64,000 bases of DNA from Acidimicrobiia bacterium (GCA_019695375.1 JAIBAC010000001.1:25638-89637), one strand, 5' to 3'. Positions 12,907 to 60,825 are shown, counted from the stretch's first letter. Notes: generated from the sequence alone by a model not told the origin. Numbers and translations: made by a program.

Positions 12907-12981
12907 GCCCTCGTAGCTCAGGGGATAGAGCACCGGCCTCCGGAGCCGGGTGCGGAGGTTCGAATCCTCCCGGGGGCGCCA
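12907..12981 (+). tRNA. tRNA-Arg (anticodon CCG)
   Basis: Hand-folded cloverleaf: acceptor GCCCTCG/CGGGGGC, D-arm GCTC AGGGGATA GAGC, anticodon loop CUCCGGA, T-arm GGAGG TTCGAAT CCTCC, discriminator G plus CCA. Confidence 0.8.
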
Positions 12982-30169: not shown

Positions 30170-32040
30170 AGGTGGGTGCCCGAGAGGTGGGACACGTGCG
30201 TCGACCGCGACAGCCACGGCGAGACGGCGCCGAGCAGGGCTCGGCCCTGATCATCGCGCTCGTCTTCCTGGTCGTGTTCGCGATGCTCGCCGGTGCGGTC
30301 GCTCAGCTCGCGACCGGTTCGCTGCGGACAGGCGAGACCGTGGGGGACCACAGCGACACGCTCTTCGGCGCCGACGACGCATCCGAACGCACGCAGGTCG
30401 CGATCGAGCAGAACCTCGACCCCGTCTGCCAGGCGGACGCCACGATCAAGCCCTACGTCCACGACGGCGACACCTACCTCGTGCGCTGCTCGTACCTCAA
30501 AGAGGGCGAGAACCCCCTGCCCGGCATCCACTTCGCGATGATGCTGTTCAGCAAGGACGAGTGGGCACTGACCAAGACCGGCTCGCCGGCCGCGTCGCTC
30601 ACCGGCGACATCCGCCTCAACACCGCGTTCCCGTGCTTCCGCTTCGCCCCCGACGGCTTCGTGAATCCGTTCGGGGTCATCGCGTGCACGAACCCGCCCG
30701 ACGAGCGTTCCGGGCGCATCCTCGGCGTCGACCAGTACTCACCGGTGGGCCCGATCCGCTTCCGCGCCAACTCCGAGGGCGCCCAGGGAGTCATAGACGT
30801 GCGCAGCAGCGACTGCAGCGGCAGCGGCTGGCTCCCGAGCCCCGTCGACATGGCATCGGCGCACGGCGGCCCGCACCTGCAGAACGCCAACAACGACGGC
30901 AGCGGCCCCTACACGTCGTTCACGAACGCCAACTGGACGTGCCACACCGACGACCTCGTGGACTCCGATCCCGACTACCCGCTGCCCGACCAGGTCGCCG
31001 ACGGGACGCTACCCACCCAGAGCTCTGCGGGCACATACGAGGACTGCAGTTCGACACCTCAGTGGTTCAACGTCGGATACCCGGTCCTGATGCAGTACAG
31101 CTGCGTGCGCCACTTCACGCCGGGGCGCTACACGTCCAACCCGACGCTCGACCTGACGGCCTCGTACGGTTACAACGGCAAGTCCACCGGGGTGCGGGCG
31201 AACATCTTCGATCCCGGGGTGTACTGGTTCGACACCGACGACACGGTGCCGCCGCAGCCGTGGTTCCCCGAGCCGGGTCTGAGCTTCTCTGTCAAGGACC
31301 AGTACCGCGACGCCCCCGTTGTGATGGGAACGGCCGACTCCCGCATACGGGCCAACACCACCTGGACCAACACCAACATCGTGGCCCAGATCCCGATCGG
31401 TGAGCGCTGCCTCGCAGGCGAGCCCGGTGTCGAGATGGTCTTCAACCCCGGCTACGGCATGGTGATCAACCCCGTGACAGGAGGCGCCGGCTTCCCCTCG
31501 GCACAGGTCACCGCGTGCCAGCTGCGGCCCGGACAGGTCGCCGGCGGCCAGCCCGGCATCGTGCTGTACCAGAAGAAGTACCCGGCCGCGGACTGGGACG
31601 GCGGCTTTACGAACTGGCCTGCGGGCAATCCGTCGCCGTGGCCCCAGCACCCCGCATGGGGGACGTTCGCCCTGTTCAACTCCGCCGACAACGTGAGCTC
31701 GGGCGGGCTCGTGATGGACGGCTTCGTGTACGCACCGCACGGCATCATCAAGACCGCCGTCGGGCTCGTGTCGACGTCGGGCACCCAGATCGCGTCGGGG
31801 ATCATCGCGTTCTCCCTGCAGCTCAAGGCGGTCGGCGCCGGCGGCCAGATGGTCGCCAACGAGCAGCCCCGCTTCGCCGGCAAGTACCTCGTCGAGATCT
31901 GGAACTGCGGGACGGCCGTCGACGCCGCTGCGTGCGGCATCGACGCCAAGCCCGCCGACGCGCGTGCCCTCGTCGACGCCGCCGTCCCCGGCGGCTCGGG
32001 CCCCACCCCGATCCGCTTCGACCGCTGGCTGCCCAACTGA
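30166..32040 (+). CDS. large PilX_N-domain minor pilin-like protein (624 aa) with Cys-rich C-terminal region
   Basis: N-term GSALIIALVFLVVFAMLAGAVAQLATGSLRTG resembles PilX N-terminal domain; ~16 Cys in extracytoplasmic part; ATGA overlap with previous pilin. Confidence 0.65.
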   Translation: MKVGAREVGHVRRPRQPRRDGAEQGSALIIALVFLVVFAMLAGAVAQLATGSLRTGETVGDHSDTLFGADDASERTQVAIEQNLDPVCQADATIKPYVHDGDTYLVRCSYLKEGENPLPGIHFAMMLFSKDEWALTKTGSPAASLTGDIRLNTAFPCFRFAPDGFVNPFGVIACTNPPDERSGRILGVDQYSPVGPIRFRANSEGAQGVIDVRSSDCSGSGWLPSPVDMASAHGGPHLQNANNDGSGPYTSFTNANWTCHTDDLVDSDPDYPLPDQVADGTLPTQSSAGTYEDCSSTPQWFNVGYPVLMQYSCVRHFTPGRYTSNPTLDLTASYGYNGKSTGVRANIFDPGVYWFDTDDTVPPQPWFPEPGLSFSVKDQYRDAPVVMGTADSRIRANTTWTNTNIVAQIPIGERCLAGEPGVEMVFNPGYGMVINPVTGGAGFPSAQVTACQLRPGQVAGGQPGIVLYQKKYPAADWDGGFTNWPAGNPSPWPQHPAWGTFALFNSADNVSSGGLVMDGFVYAPHGIIKTAVGLVSTSGTQIASGIIAFSLQLKAVGAGGQMVANEQPRFAGKYLVEIWNCGTAVDAAACGIDAKPADARALVDAAVPGGSGPTPIRFDRWLPN

Positions 32041-32046
32041 CGCCCG

Positions 32047-32174
32047 GCCCCACGCCAAACGCGGGCGGAATCGCCCGCGAGCACGTCAGACCACCCGCGT
32101 TTGGGGGACGGACCCACGCCAAACGCGGGCGGAATCGCCCGCGAGCACGCCAGACCACCCGCGTTTGGGGAGGT
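32047..32174. repeat. two tandem ~64-bp copies (1-2 mismatches) each containing 11-bp inverted repeat CCAAACGCGGG/CCCGCGTTTGG and nested GCGGGCG-GAAT-CGCCCGC hairpin
   Basis: Direct reading; located between pilX-like stop and major pilin start. Confidence 0.9.
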
Positions 32175-48801: not shown

Positions 48802-48843
48802 GCAGGCCGAGGCGCTTCGCCGAGCGCCTCGGTGAACAAGGGC

Positions 48844-57725: not shown

Positions 57726-58198
57726 ACGTCCGAGGACTCGGCCACCGCCTTGAGACGGGCCAGGCCCTTCTCGAAATCCCTGCCCACGGCCTTGTCCATC
57801 GACCAGAAGATCGACATGACCCGCGTCATGAACGTCTTCCTGCCCGTCATGGCCCATGTGACCCTGGTTCCGTCGTCTGCTGGCGCGAGTGTGAACACGA
57901 TGTCGTTGCGCGCCTTGAAGGGCTTGACGAACTCGAGGTCGATGCGGACCTCGGCACCGTCCTCGGCACCGACGATCTTCATCGTCCCTTCTCCGACCTT
58001 CCGGTTGCCCTGCCAGGAGTAGGTCGCGCCGACGCCGGAGTCGGCGCCGCCGTAGGTGCGCGTCATGTTCGCGTCCGTGTCCTCCCACGGCGACCAGCCC
58101 TCCCACCGGTGGAAGTCGACGACTGACTCGTAGATCGTGGCGGCGGGCGCGGCGATGACGATGTCACGCTGCACCGTGTAGGTCTGTTCCATGGTCAC
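57722..58198 (-). CDS. SRPBCC-family (AHSA1/polyketide-cyclase-like) protein
   Basis: 158 aa, fold-level pattern only. Confidence 0.5.
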   Translation of the reverse strand: MTMEQTYTVQRDIVIAAPAATIYESVVDFHRWEGWSPWEDTDANMTRTYGGADSGVGATYSWQGNRKVGEGTMKIVGAEDGAEVRIDLEFVKPFKARNDIVFTLAPADDGTRVTWAMTGRKTFMTRVMSIFWSMDKAVGRDFEKGLARLKAVAESSDV

Positions 58199-58207
58199 GT
58201 CCTGTCT

Positions 58208-58948
58208 TCAGATGGCAGTCAGTCTGTCGAGGCCGAGCCAGGTCATGAATCCGATGATCTGCTGTGACAGCCAGGTGACCTTGCCGAAGACCATCAGGAG
58301 CCCGAAGACAACCATGATCGTCCCTGCGATGGCGTTGATGAGGCGGGCATGGCGCTTGAACCAGCCGAACACGCGGCTCAGCTCGCTGAGCGCGAGGCCC
58401 GAGAGCAGGAACGGGACGCCGAGGCCTGCGGCGTAGGCGACGAGCAGCGCGATCCCGCGGCCCACGCTCGCGGTGGCGGCTGCGAGCGTGAGCACTCCCC
58501 CGAGGATGGGGCCGATGCACGGCGTCCACCCGAACGCGAACGCCATCCCCATCACCGGCGCCCCCCACCCGCCGAGGGAGTCACCCACCCGGAAACGGCG
58601 CTCGCGTTCGAGCCACATCGGCCTCAGGATCCCGGCGAGGAACACCCCGAACACGATGATCACGACCCCGAATGCGATCTCGAACACGCGCTGGTTCCGC
58701 ACCAGGAACTTGCCGACGGTCGCGGCACTCGCGCCGAGGAGGACGAACACCGCCGTGAAACCCGCCATGAACAACGCGACCCCACGCAGCACCTTCAGGC
58801 GCTGCTCCCGCGCGGTCTCGCGCTCCTGCAGCTCCGCGACGGAGACGCCCGTCACTATCGACAGGTATGCGGGTACGAGCGGCAGCACGCACGGCGACAG
58901 GAACGAGATCATCCCCGCGCCGAACGCCGCCAGGAGCGAGACGTCCAC
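58208..58948 (-). CDS. ccdA: cytochrome c-type biogenesis protein CcdA (DsbD-like transmembrane electron transporter)
   Basis: Two conserved Cys in TM1/TM4 (FLSPCVLPLVP, FGWTPCIGPILG); GTG start 58948. Confidence 0.8.
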   Translation of the reverse strand: MDVSLLAAFGAGMISFLSPCVLPLVPAYLSIVTGVSVAELQERETAREQRLKVLRGVALFMAGFTAVFVLLGASAATVGKFLVRNQRVFEIAFGVVIIVFGVFLAGILRPMWLERERRFRVGDSLGGWGAPVMGMAFAFGWTPCIGPILGGVLTLAAATASVGRGIALLVAYAAGLGVPFLLSGLALSELSRVFGWFKRHARLINAIAGTIMVVFGLLMVFGKVTWLSQQIIGFMTWLGLDRLTAI

Positions 58949-58954
58949 CCACCC

Positions 58955-59625
58955 AAACTACAAAGGCGCCCGGCCTGCTCCCCACAAGGCGCTCGGCACT
59001 TCCTCCCACGGACCTCGTGAACCACGTACCTCGACCCGTGGACGTCAAGAGAGGAAGCACCTCGGCCTGCTTTCCACAGAGGCGCTCGGCACTTCCTCCC
59101 ACGGACCTCGTGAACCACGTACCTCGACCCGTGGACGTCAAGAGAGGAAGCACCTCGGCATGCTTTCCACTGAGGCGCTCGGCACTTCCTCCTACGGACC
59201 TCGTGAACCACGTACCTCGACCCGTGGACGTCAAGAGAGGAAGCACCTCGGCCTGCTTTCCCCTGAGGCGCTCGGCGCTTCCTCCTACGGACCTCGTGAA
59301 CCACGTACCTCGACCCGTGGACGTCAAGAGAGGAAGCACCTCGGCCTGCCACTCCACAAGGCGCTCGGCGCTTCCCTCCTACGGACCTCGTGAACCACGT
59401 ACCTCGACCCGTGGACGTCAAGAGAGGAAGCACCTCGGCCTGCCACTCCACAAGGCGCTCGGCGCTTCCCTCCACAAAGGCGCTCGGCGCTTCCTCCTAC
59501 GGACCTTGTGAACCACGTACCTCGACCCGTGGACGTTGAGAGAGGAAGCACCTCGGCCTGCTACCCGTGCCGCTCCAGACAGGAAGCACCTCGGCCTGCC
59601 ACTCCACAAGGCGCTCGGCGAGGTC
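58955..59625. repeat. array of ~7 tandem 93-bp structured repeats (MIRU/VNTR-like), last units degenerate
   Basis: GGCGCTCGGC anchor recurs at 58988, 59081, 59174, 59267, 59360, 59454, 59478 (period 93/94); each unit has nested inverted repeats (CACTTCCTCC..GAGGAAGCAC, CCACG..CGTGG). Confidence 0.9.
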
Positions 59626-60418
59626 ACATACCGCGGAAACGTGGGGGGCGCTTCTCGGCGAAGGCGGCGAGGCCTTCACGCAGGTCGGAAGACGCGCACG
59701 CGGCCTCGGACGCGTTCTTGTGGCGGCTGTACTCGGCATCGGAGTCCGCGAGCCACCAGCTGTCCACGACGGACTGGATGGCGGCCTTGTGGCCGGTGAC
59801 GGACAGCGGTGCTCGTGTCGCAATCCGCTGCGCCCACTCCGTCGCCCGCGACCGCGCGTCGCCGGCGGCGACGACCTCGTGCACGAAACCGAGCGCCGCG
59901 GCACCCTCACCGTCGACGGGATCGCCTGTGAGGAGCAGGCGGCGTGCGGCAGCCGGTCCGAACTCGCACACAAGCCTGTTCAGGTTGACGATGTCGAGTT
60001 GCAGTCCGATGCGGGCCGCAGGGATCCCGATCATCGCGTCGGTGGCCACCACCCGGAGGTCGCACGCAGCGAGCACCTGACAACCGGCACCGAGCGCCGG
60101 CCCCTCGACGCCCGCGACGAAGGGGACACGGAAGTGCGCCATCCGGTCGAGGACGGCCTGGAACAGCGGCAGGAACCCGCCCCTGTCCGAAGAGTCGTCG
60201 AAGTCGCCGAAGTCGGCACCCGCGCAGAACGCCGGCGGATCGCCGACCACGACAACTGCCCGCACGTCAGGAGCAGCCTCGACACGGTCGAGCGCGGCGT
60301 GCAAACGCCCCGTCATCGCGACGCTCAAGGCGTTGCGGCGTGATGGGCGTGTGAGGGTCAGGGTGGCGACGGCTGCGTCGACGGCGACGACCACGTCGCC
60401 CTGTTCGGGCTCAGACAT
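59624..60418 (-). CDS. enoyl-CoA hydratase/isomerase family protein
   Basis: Crotonase fold motifs (FCAGADF, GAGCQVLAACD); start ATG 60418. Confidence 0.8.
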   Translation of the reverse strand: MSEPEQGDVVVAVDAAVATLTLTRPSRRNALSVAMTGRLHAALDRVEAAPDVRAVVVVGDPPAFCAGADFGDFDDSSDRGGFLPLFQAVLDRMAHFRVPFVAGVEGPALGAGCQVLAACDLRVVATDAMIGIPAARIGLQLDIVNLNRLVCEFGPAAARRLLLTGDPVDGEGAAALGFVHEVVAAGDARSRATEWAQRIATRAPLSVTGHKAAIQSVVDSWWLADSDAEYSRHKNASEAACASSDLREGLAAFAEKRPPRFRGM

Positions 60419-60450
60419 GGATCGCAGCGTAGCGAGCCCGCACAACTACC

Positions 60451-60825
60451 TTGCGGGCGGTGGAGGCTGTGGACGCGTTCCTCGAGCGCTTCGGCGTGGA
60501 CGGGCGGCGGGTCCTCGATGTCGGGTGCGGGGACGGCGGCCTCCGCGACCACCTCGAGGCGAACCATCCCGGGTTCCTCTCCTACCTCGGCGTCGACTCC
60601 GCCGATGCCATAGCACGGGCGCGGCGTGCCCATCCCGACGCCCACCGCGACTTCGCCGTGCGCGACGTCGCTGCTGCACCGTTCCCGCCGGGGACCTTCG
60701 ACCTCGTCGTGTCCCTCGGCGGGTCGGGACCACCGATCGCGGACCTCGCGCAGATGGCGACCGTCGCCGCCCTCAGGACCGCTGCCGACGGCACGGCCGA
60801 GTCCGCGACAGGGGGGTCGCGCTAG
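60451..60825 (+). CDS. small class I SAM-dependent methyltransferase-like protein
   Basis: Motif I VLDVGCGDGG; TTG start 60451 (GTG 60468 alternative); only 124 aa so possibly truncated. Confidence 0.45.
   Translation: MRAVEAVDAFLERFGVDGRRVLDVGCGDGGLRDHLEANHPGFLSYLGVDSADAIARARRAHPDAHRDFAVRDVAAAPFPPGTFDLVVSLGGSGPPIADLAQMATVAALRTAADGTAESATGGSR

Follow-up and report, generated by a model that had tools for sequence, protein, structure and literature searches.

The spacer between two co-directional genes is filled by a direct-repeat array in a 64,000-nucleotide stretch of DNA from an Acidimicrobiia bacterium (GCA_019695375.1, JAIBAC010000001.1:25638-89637; hereafter, the window). The two genes, encoding an enoyl-CoA hydratase (ECH) and the cytochrome c biogenesis protein CcdA, are the upstream and downstream partners, respectively, of a pair on the minus strand, as open reading frames (ORFs) and Pfam matches indicate; an earlier note on this sequence had also named them as the neighbours of the array. 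The ECH stop codon occupies positions 59624-59626, and ccdA begins with a GTG codon at 58948. Between them, six complete elements of 85-86 nt and four fragments span positions 58962-59620, leaving a residual non-repeat spacer of 3 nt on the ECH side and 13 nt on the ccdA side (Table 1). The earlier note had counted seven 93-bp units that began 7 bp from the ccdA GTG; neither figure holds, and the repeat homology begins 14 nt from that codon.

Table 1. Features of the ECH-ccdA array, its flanking genes and the related mini form, numbered from the first nucleotide of the window.
Feature	Coordinates	Strand	Evidence or remark
ccdA (cytochrome c biogenesis protein, DsbD_TM)	58208..58948	minus	ORF; the identical protein of Logan contigs matches Pfam PF02683
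Leftover native ECH-ccdA spacer, GTAGTTTGGGTGG on the minus strand	58949..58961	minus	Aligns with the last ~15 nt of the L007 and L017 spacers
'Solo ends' fragment AAAGGCGCCCGGCCTGC	58962..58978	plus	Sequence; direct-repeat family
Element 1, 85 nt, orientation E+	58986..59070	plus	Covariance model, 107.7 bits
Element 2, 85 nt	59079..59163	plus	Covariance model, 98.9 bits
Element 3, 85 nt	59172..59256	plus	Covariance model, 106.5 bits
Element 4, 85 nt	59265..59349	plus	Covariance model, 110.5 bits
Element 5, 86 nt, 1-nt insertion in the left arm	59358..59443	plus	Covariance model, 103.6 bits
Additional 25-nt left-end copy AAGGCGCTCGGCGCTTCCCTCCACA	59452..59476	plus	Sequence; source of the 118-nt unit
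Element 6, 85 nt	59477..59561	plus	Covariance model, 110 bits
Right-tail module TACCCGTGCCGC	59562..59573	plus	Also follows the element at L026, L027 and L033
Lone right-arm and right-end fragment AGGAAGCACCTCGGCCTGC	59581..59599	plus	Sequence
Lone left-end fragment AAGGCGCTCGGCG, separated from the ECH stop by 3 nt	59608..59620	plus	Sequence
Enoyl-CoA hydratase (ECH) gene	59624..60445	minus	ORF; orthologue alignment
29-nt mini form, GAGGCGCTCGGCG joined to AAGCGCCTCGGCCTGC	48802..48830	minus	Covariance model, E = 0.011; regular-expression match

Tandem Repeats Finder reported a period of 93 nt at 58971-59469 (5.4 copies, 95% matches, score 839) and a 25-nt period at 59434-59494. A 31-nt core is present six times and a 22-nt arm/junction segment seven times in the window, where approximately none would be expected from shuffled sequences. 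The complete elements are 92-99% identical in pairwise comparisons (mean, 96%), where the earlier note had given ~95%. Elements 1 to 5 are joined by 8-nt linkers (TTTCCACA, TTTCCACT, TTTCCCCT and CACTCCAC), and the last join, between elements 5 and 6, is a 33-nt linker that includes the additional 25-nt left-end copy. The elements therefore start 93, 93, 93, 93 and 119 nt apart, and the junction-anchored units measure 92, 93, 93, 93, 94 and 118 nt, followed by a 38-nt unit and a terminal partial unit. The 92-, 94- and 118-nt units shift the register, which the constant 93-nt period described earlier would have preserved. In the 'solo ends' fragment, the interior has been deleted and the left and right ends are fused through a CTCGGC motif common to both. 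As the earlier note had recognized, this is not a clustered regularly interspaced short palindromic repeat (CRISPR) array: it lacks unique spacers, its linkers are merely variants of one another, and the entire 93-nt period recurs.

The array is genuine, and its existence does not hinge on this assembly. At least nine independent short-read samples break at its edges, six on the ccdA side and three on the ECH side. The exact CcdA sequence is found on Logan short-read contigs from the six samples, all of which end 122 nt upstream of ccdA, that is, one unit into the array. The exact 264-aa ECH product, with its Pfam ECH_1 domain, is found on Logan contigs from the three further samples; these all break off 33 nt beyond the ECH stop and match the window with 100% identity up to position 59591. 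Over 10.8 kb, the strains represented on the ccdA side share 99.6% identity with the window, yet 3 of the 93 positions in the first unit differ, which fits a fast turnover of the array.

When did the repeat arrive at this locus? By source names, the organism is an uncultured member of the Acidimicrobiales/Acidimicrobiia. In three sister lineages (L007, L013 and L017), whose CcdA proteins are 91, 90 and 87% identical to that of the window and whose ccdA genes are 83-86% identical to it in nucleotide sequence, the order TopA-ECH-ECH-ccdA is kept, and the ECH-ccdA spacers are 45, 15 and 22 nt long (genes as called) and contain no array. The window spacer can be aligned with those of the relatives only over the final ~13 nt upstream of the ccdA start, and this remnant (58949-58961) likely carries the ccdA ribosome-binding site. 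Judged from these alignments, the ECH-ccdA array is a recent, lineage-specific insertion, and the comparison places the entry of one copy into the spacer after the split from relatives of 83-85% nucleotide identity. The last three ECH codons, at 59624-59635 on the array junction, also differ, reading FRGM* in the window against FEGR* in all three sister lineages, which suggests that the end of the ECH gene was remodelled by the insertion or by a subsequent rearrangement.

The earlier note had treated the array as a single occurrence; we found its unit to be a member of a dispersed family. The junction 20-mer GAGGAAGCACCTCGGCCTGC matched eight loci on three long contigs of the metagenome-assembled genome (MAG) 'Acidimicrobiia bacterium STL-ACT9' (JAXLRM01), at two of which the matches are spaced by 93 nt, and also metagenome contig L031. 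A regular expression, nhmmer and a covariance model to which each locus contributed one copy all recovered full-length elements at these loci. Single full-length copies of 84-85 nt are present at L021, L026, L027, L029 and L031; 1.5 units are present at both L024 and L025, 2 units at L022 and 3.5 units, 100% identical and with a period of 93 nt, at L028. A further copy was found in the contigs of a fourth organism (L033-L036). As recovered here, the family comprises 12 full-length loci in four organisms and the 29-nt mini form, all of them intergenic. The neighbouring genes are unrelated housekeeping genes, encoding acyl-CoA dehydrogenase, thiolase, LeuA, an ECH paralogue, IlvN and a GT4 glycosyltransferase. 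Although the array at L028 also follows an ECH gene, we rejected it as an orthologous locus because the two ECH proteins are only 26% identical, and the 20-mer matches at L023, L030 and L032 were discarded as chance, having no nhmmer or covariance-model match.

In the mini form, the left end is followed immediately by the right end, and the two form a perfect 7-bp palindrome. It lies between convergent stop codons, 13 nt from that of a 143-aa ORF and 0 nt from that of a gene encoding a GGDEF-domain protein, and could either derive from a longer copy by internal deletion or represent the hairpin from which the family arose. No other family copy is present in the remaining 63 kb of the window, where 10-12-nt blastn matches to GAGGCGCTCGGC were attributed to chance because they lie inside coding sequences. 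A 25-nt core of the unit had no match in 185,579 representative genomes or in Joint Genome Institute (JGI) metagenome contigs and, as far as these collections reach, is species-specific. Rfam gave no match in the array at E <= 1 and no relevant match at gathering score in the whole window; none was obtained when three units were compared with plasmid and phage collections by distant-mode blastn; and no paper was found in the literature on STL-ACT9 or on repeats in Acidimicrobiia. On the basis of Rfam, these plasmid and phage collections and the searchable literature, the repeat family is previously undescribed. The sole gathering-score match of Rfam in the window is a tRNA gene at 12907-12978.

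We recorded where the element lies relative to genes. At seven of the 11 other full-length loci, its left end lies from -1 to +9 nt of a co-oriented upstream stop codon, the stop-to-element gaps being -1 nt at L029, 1 nt at L022, 2 nt at each of L024, L026 and L028, 5 nt at L033 and 9 nt at L027. At L025 and in the window, the left end instead faces a divergent gene start 12-14 nt away, and at L021 a convergent stop codon lies 32 nt beyond the right end. The right end is mostly 70-110 nt from the next gene. An empty site is available for one insertion and shows its point of entry to be precise: L040 encodes an IlvN protein 91% identical to that of L029 and terminates at the same codon, which is TAG in the empty site and TAA, within TAA-AGGCGC, in the filled one, the element starting inside the stop. 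No target-site duplication was found in this comparison or in the flanks of 12 copies. When a common target tetranucleotide was sought in the left flanks, only a loose YWGNAA was seen, and this may merely reflect the stop codons. At L031, where the element occupies positions 2759-2843, the sole upstream ORF that is coding-like by the G+C content at third codon positions (GC3) reads 33 nt into the element and terminates at a TGA inside the first variable segment; judged from this reading frame, the element may supply the C-terminus of the protein.

The arrays of the window, L022 and L028 consist of head-to-tail units, all on one strand. In every array of the family, the linkers are specific to the locus and are built from its local flanks; at L022, for example, the linker TATCTGAA corresponds to TATC from the right flank and CTGAA from the left flank around an ATC microhomology. 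Because the linkers are locus-specific and derived from the flanks, we conclude that the element was inserted once at each of these loci and then duplicated locally in tandem; the units were not inserted one after another. Two other tandem duplications occur in the window. At 1780-1902, a 62-bp intergenic unit containing the inverted repeat GACGTGGGGACG / CGTCCCCACGTC is perfectly (100%) duplicated; its sequence is unrelated to the 93-nt family, although it displays the same habit of intergenic hairpin duplication. At 32045-32170, a 64-bp unit with the inverted repeat CCAAACGCGGG / CCCGCGTTTGG is duplicated with 96% identity; a 698-aa ORF terminates (stop codon, 32038-32040) 4 nt before its first position.

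The consensus of the family can be written as RAGGCGCTCGGCGCTTCCTCCYACGGAC-v1-GAACCACGCACC-v2-CGTGGACGTC-v3-GAGGAAGCACCTCGGCCTGC(YAYCCGTGCC). The segments v1 to v3, of 5-7 nt each, are hypervariable among loci, the blocks between them are nearly invariant, and the element length is fixed at 84-85 nt, or ~97 nt with the tail. A tail YAYCC(G/C)TGCC follows the consensus at five loci, and the form TAYCCGTGCC(GC) occurs at window positions 59562-59573, L026 2039-2050, L027 6238-6249 and L033 1920-1929, in three organisms; to judge from this recurrence, the complete element is probably ~97 nt long, tail included. At L026, the tail continues into an additional G+C-rich hairpin (GCCGCGGCC...GGCCGCGGC).

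Within the element, a subterminal inverted repeat of 11-12 bp, GGCGCTTCCTCC / GGAGGAAGCACC, is accompanied by inner stems, and the outermost 9-12 nt at either end are conserved and not inverted. RNAalifold predicted, for either strand, an outer helix of 4-5 bp, an arm helix of 11-12 bp and inner helices. In this shared structure, 97% of the alignment cells can pair on the complementary strand (E-) and 92% on E+, as compared with 35-53% when the partners are slid by 1-3 columns. No pair has changed on both sides on either strand, however, and no measure of covariation exceeded that of shuffled alignments. Single elements gave z scores of -1.9 to -3.7 on E- and -0.6 to -3.2 on E+ against dinucleotide shuffles, and the unit in the window folds 0.6 (plus strand) to 1.9 (minus strand) standard deviations better than such shuffles, whereas the whole 678-nt array folds no better than shuffled sequence (z = +0.1 and +0.6). 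The arms in the array could pair either across the core or across the linker, and the predicted fold is the latter. The dyad symmetry is thus real and conserved, and there is no evidence for RNA structure under selection. The description of each unit as highly structured and able to form a long imperfect hairpin was correct as to the inverted repeat and overstated as to its strength. Inspection by eye found no consistent pairing among v1, v2 and v3. An apparent preference for the E- strand, on which four of four arm transitions remain paired (G-U or U-A), would arise by chance with a probability of ~0.16 and was not counted as evidence; likewise, a GTAG, the tetranucleotide conserved at the foot of REP hairpins (see below), lies beside the arm on the E- strand in most copies, but as a 4-mer it carries no weight.

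How does this family compare with known repeats? Repetitive extragenic palindromic (REP) sequences, with their composites, the bacterial interspersed mosaic elements (BIMEs), and REPIN doublets are known from Enterobacteria and Pseudomonas (Nunvar et al. 2010, PMC2817692; RepRanger 2025, PMC12306157). As far as the 12 full-length loci show, the present elements share with them the form of G+C-rich imperfect palindromes, an intergenic location, dispersal at housekeeping loci, frequent clustering, the absence of target-site duplication and a position often within 15 nt of an upstream stop codon (13 nt for the mini form). The long hairpin of the REPIN type measures ~90-110 nt, similar to the 85-nt element. 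In contrast to REP sequences and BIMEs, with which there is no sequence similarity, the elements form head-to-tail direct repeats at 93 nt where REP clusters alternate in orientation, their arms are subterminal and flanked by conserved non-palindromic ends bearing the direct CTCGGC motif, no gene for a REP-associated tyrosine transposase (RAYT) was identified near the copies, and the host belongs to an actinobacterial class without a described family of this kind. Miniature inverted-repeat transposable elements (MITEs) of bacteria, such as Correia/NEMIS, ERIC, RUP and Nezha (reviewed in PMC3184786), are also small, non-autonomous-looking intergenic elements with inverted repeats and a long hairpin, transcribed with their neighbours. 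Unlike them, the present family has no target-site duplication, inverted repeats that are subterminal, no known parent insertion sequence (IS) and a tendency to tandem amplification. The earlier note had allowed that the unit might belong to a known IS or MITE family with terminal inverted repeats and target-site duplication; a dispersed family and subterminal inverted repeats were indeed found, and a target-site duplication and a described family were not. We also considered the type III toxin-antitoxin system, because the ToxI antitoxin likewise consists of tandem short structured units upstream of a gene on the same strand. This candidate was rejected: the downstream gene is ccdA (DsbD_TM) and not an endoribonuclease toxin, the units are 93 nt long as compared with ~36 nt in ToxI, and the unit occurs singly at many unrelated loci, where family copies flank unrelated metabolic genes.

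Interspersed repetitive units of mycobacteria (MIRUs), which give rise to variable number tandem repeats (VNTRs) in Mycobacterium, were the comparison suggested in the earlier note. As summarized in PMC12548453, MIRUs (Supply et al.) insert at start codons and carry an internal ORF coupled at -4 nt. The likeness is that of an actinobacterial interspersed repeat of 40-100 bp forming tandem arrays between co-directional genes and filling the spacer almost from stop to start codon, and the difference is that the preferred junction here is the upstream stop codon, with the next start 70-110 nt away. Moreover, the frame is not constant, there is no coding signal, the dyad symmetry is strong and both orientations occur. 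The MIRU/VNTR comparison therefore stands for an intergenic minisatellite between co-directional genes with internal inverted repeats, and fails for the insertion at a start codon and the coupled in-frame ORF: a GTGA overlap is present at the ECH stop, yet a coupled ORF of the MIRU type is not found. REP/BIME, MIRU and MITE sequences being well-known phenomena, the array is not a new kind of system.

By what route could such an array have formed? We consider it fairly probable that it is a locally amplified cluster of a new REP/MITE-like interspersed palindromic repeat family, produced by one insertion into the spacer, by slippage or unequal recombination, and by hairpin-promoted deletions that left the fragments. 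The family would have spread by a DNA-level process that leaves no target-site duplication and favours a site a few bases 3' of a stop codon; because target-site duplication is absent and the junction at one end is fixed, this process would resemble, by analogy, that of REP/RAYT or IS200/IS605 elements, or hairpin-mediated recombination. The copy in the ECH-ccdA spacer would have multiplied via replication slippage or unequal recombination, and the fragments would be products of deletions between shared CTCGGC motifs, promoted by the hairpins. The ECH-ccdA transcript would thereby gain ~660 nt of alternating, G-C-rich predicted hairpins, which are expected to fold better on the sense strand of these genes because G-U pairs can form there. 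On this model, the hairpins would most likely act as barriers to 3' exonucleases and as partial punctuation of transcription and translation that loosens the coupling of ccdA to ECH, an effect that would be a by-product and not a selected function; slowed 3' exonucleases, partial termination and the loss of tight ECH-ccdA coupling are all plausible. Scans for sigma-70 promoter and intrinsic-terminator consensus sequences over 58000-60600 found no site.

Several points weigh against this interpretation. No transposase or RAYT gene lies near any copy in the neighbourhoods of the family loci, so that the mechanism of mobility is purely inferred, and the effects of the array on the transcript are predicted ones. 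Conserved and hypervariable blocks alternate at a fixed length and include a motif, GAACCACGCACC, that is predicted to be mostly unpaired; this pattern exceeds the needs of a decaying selfish repeat and hints at sequence-specific recognition or function. Selection alone does not account for a left end that abuts stop codons. The copy number of six rests on the window assembly and is unconfirmed by reads. Finally, the genomes were scanned only with the exact 20-mer, which makes the right-hand 20 nt of the family invariant by ascertainment.

Two alternatives we regard as very improbable. The array might be a single element or short repeat that was inflated by the assembler, since all short-read assemblies break here and none confirms the internal structure. 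Such an expansion would not create ordered, unit-specific variants, however, and those of the window include GCAC and GCGC arms, three types of linker, a 1-nt insertion and a 25-nt duplication; contig breaks at both edges in nine independent samples are what a true multi-copy repeat would be expected to give, and the long-contig MAG STL-ACT9 contains arrays of 2 and 3.5 units of the family with the same 93-nt period. Alternatively, the array might be a translated spacer of the MIRU type, whose short ORFs either hand ribosomes on from ECH to ccdA or specify a repeat peptide. A GTG that overlaps the ECH stop (ATGTGA) opens a 69-codon ORF at 59627-59418, a 188-codon ORF at 59475-58909 extends beyond the ccdA start, and three junction-anchored units are exactly 93 nt (31 codons) long. 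The composition of the DNA is nevertheless unlike that of genes: GC3 is 0.58-0.66 in all frames of the array, as compared with 0.92 in ccdA (where G+C at codon positions 1, 2 and 3 is 0.66, 0.47 and 0.92), 0.83 in ECH and 0.93 in topA. The earlier note held that all six frames stay open; within one unit only four of the six are open, one frame on each strand stops in every unit, and the 92-, 94- and 118-nt units break the register of any longer frame. A synthetic query made from the open frames of units from three loci found no similar protein among 5.8 billion protein clusters, and the family copies elsewhere are single, follow stop codons and occur in either orientation. Because its GC3 is unlike that of genes, one frame per strand is closed and the indels break the register, the array DNA is non-coding, and the repeat peptide envisaged in the earlier note finds no frame with genic GC3.

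The principal alternative, which we judge unlikely while giving it some weight, holds that selection maintains the element as an RNA module of the 3' untranslated region (3'-UTR), in which a stable post-stop hairpin terminates transcription, shields the upstream mRNA against 3' exonucleases or stalls the terminating ribosome and so tunes the upstream gene; it could be an 'I-shaped' actinobacterial terminator without a U-tract, and the array a reinforced version that sets the ECH:ccdA ratio. The proximity of the left end to co-oriented stop codons, the mini form between convergent stops in the manner of a bidirectional terminator, and the sequence blocks conserved at a fixed length all agree with this explanation, as do the four of six arm variants that keep E- pairing via G-U pairs. 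There is also a precedent in Escherichia coli, in which REP sequences within 15 nt of a stop codon stall ribosomes, according to RepRanger (PMC12306157, citing Liang et al. 2015). Against a selected RNA, no helix contains a compensatory change and covariation was no better than in shuffles; the better-folding E- strand is antisense to the upstream gene at most loci, but sense in the window; the orientation relative to transcription is not fixed, differing at 3 of the 12 full-length loci; the scan of 58000-60600 found no terminator-like site; and close relatives lack the element at the same loci. The conserved blocks might instead be bound as DNA, by a nucleoid protein, gyrase or IHF as at the BIMEs of E. 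coli, or by a dedicated regulator of GAACCACGCACC / CGTGGACGTC, making the array a topological or transcriptional insulator. The blocks are not needed for the main stems, adjacent segments vary freely and the direct repeat spaces the blocks evenly; even so, no candidate binder was identified, most loci have a single copy and the genes next to them have no function in common other than general metabolism, and we find this explanation decidedly improbable. There is a small chance that the family is a mobile module whose integration is specific to stop codons or the positions directly behind them, with the blocks GAACCACGCACC and CGTGGACGTC read by a dedicated protein or ribonucleoprotein, a proposal drawn from the sequence pattern and from the position of the copies.

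The flanks of the array contain two further points of annotation. The ECH gene may have an alternative start at the ATG at 60418. Between the two enoyl-CoA hydratase genes, a plus-strand ORF of 124 codons lies at 60451-60825, which is called a methyltransferase on Logan contig L018; the equivalent of this region in sister lineage L007 is only a 249-nt gap, and the hydratase there is called with a longer N-terminus.

For annotation, the array explains why short-read assemblies break at this and other loci of the Acidimicrobiia lineage, and recognizing it prevents the repeats from being miscalled as ORFs or as a CRISPR. Tandem arrays with a 93-nt period form readily in this family and could serve as strain-typing (VNTR) markers in metagenomes. 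Two features of the element are noteworthy, namely, that it lands within a few bases of stop codons and that conserved and hypervariable blocks alternate within it at a fixed length. If the family does target stop codons as a dedicated module, it would constitute a new class of element or of structured 3'-UTR RNA in Acidimicrobiia, and the arrays would be dosage-tuned versions of it. As it stands, it gives an uncultured and little-known class of actinobacteria its first family of interspersed repeats.

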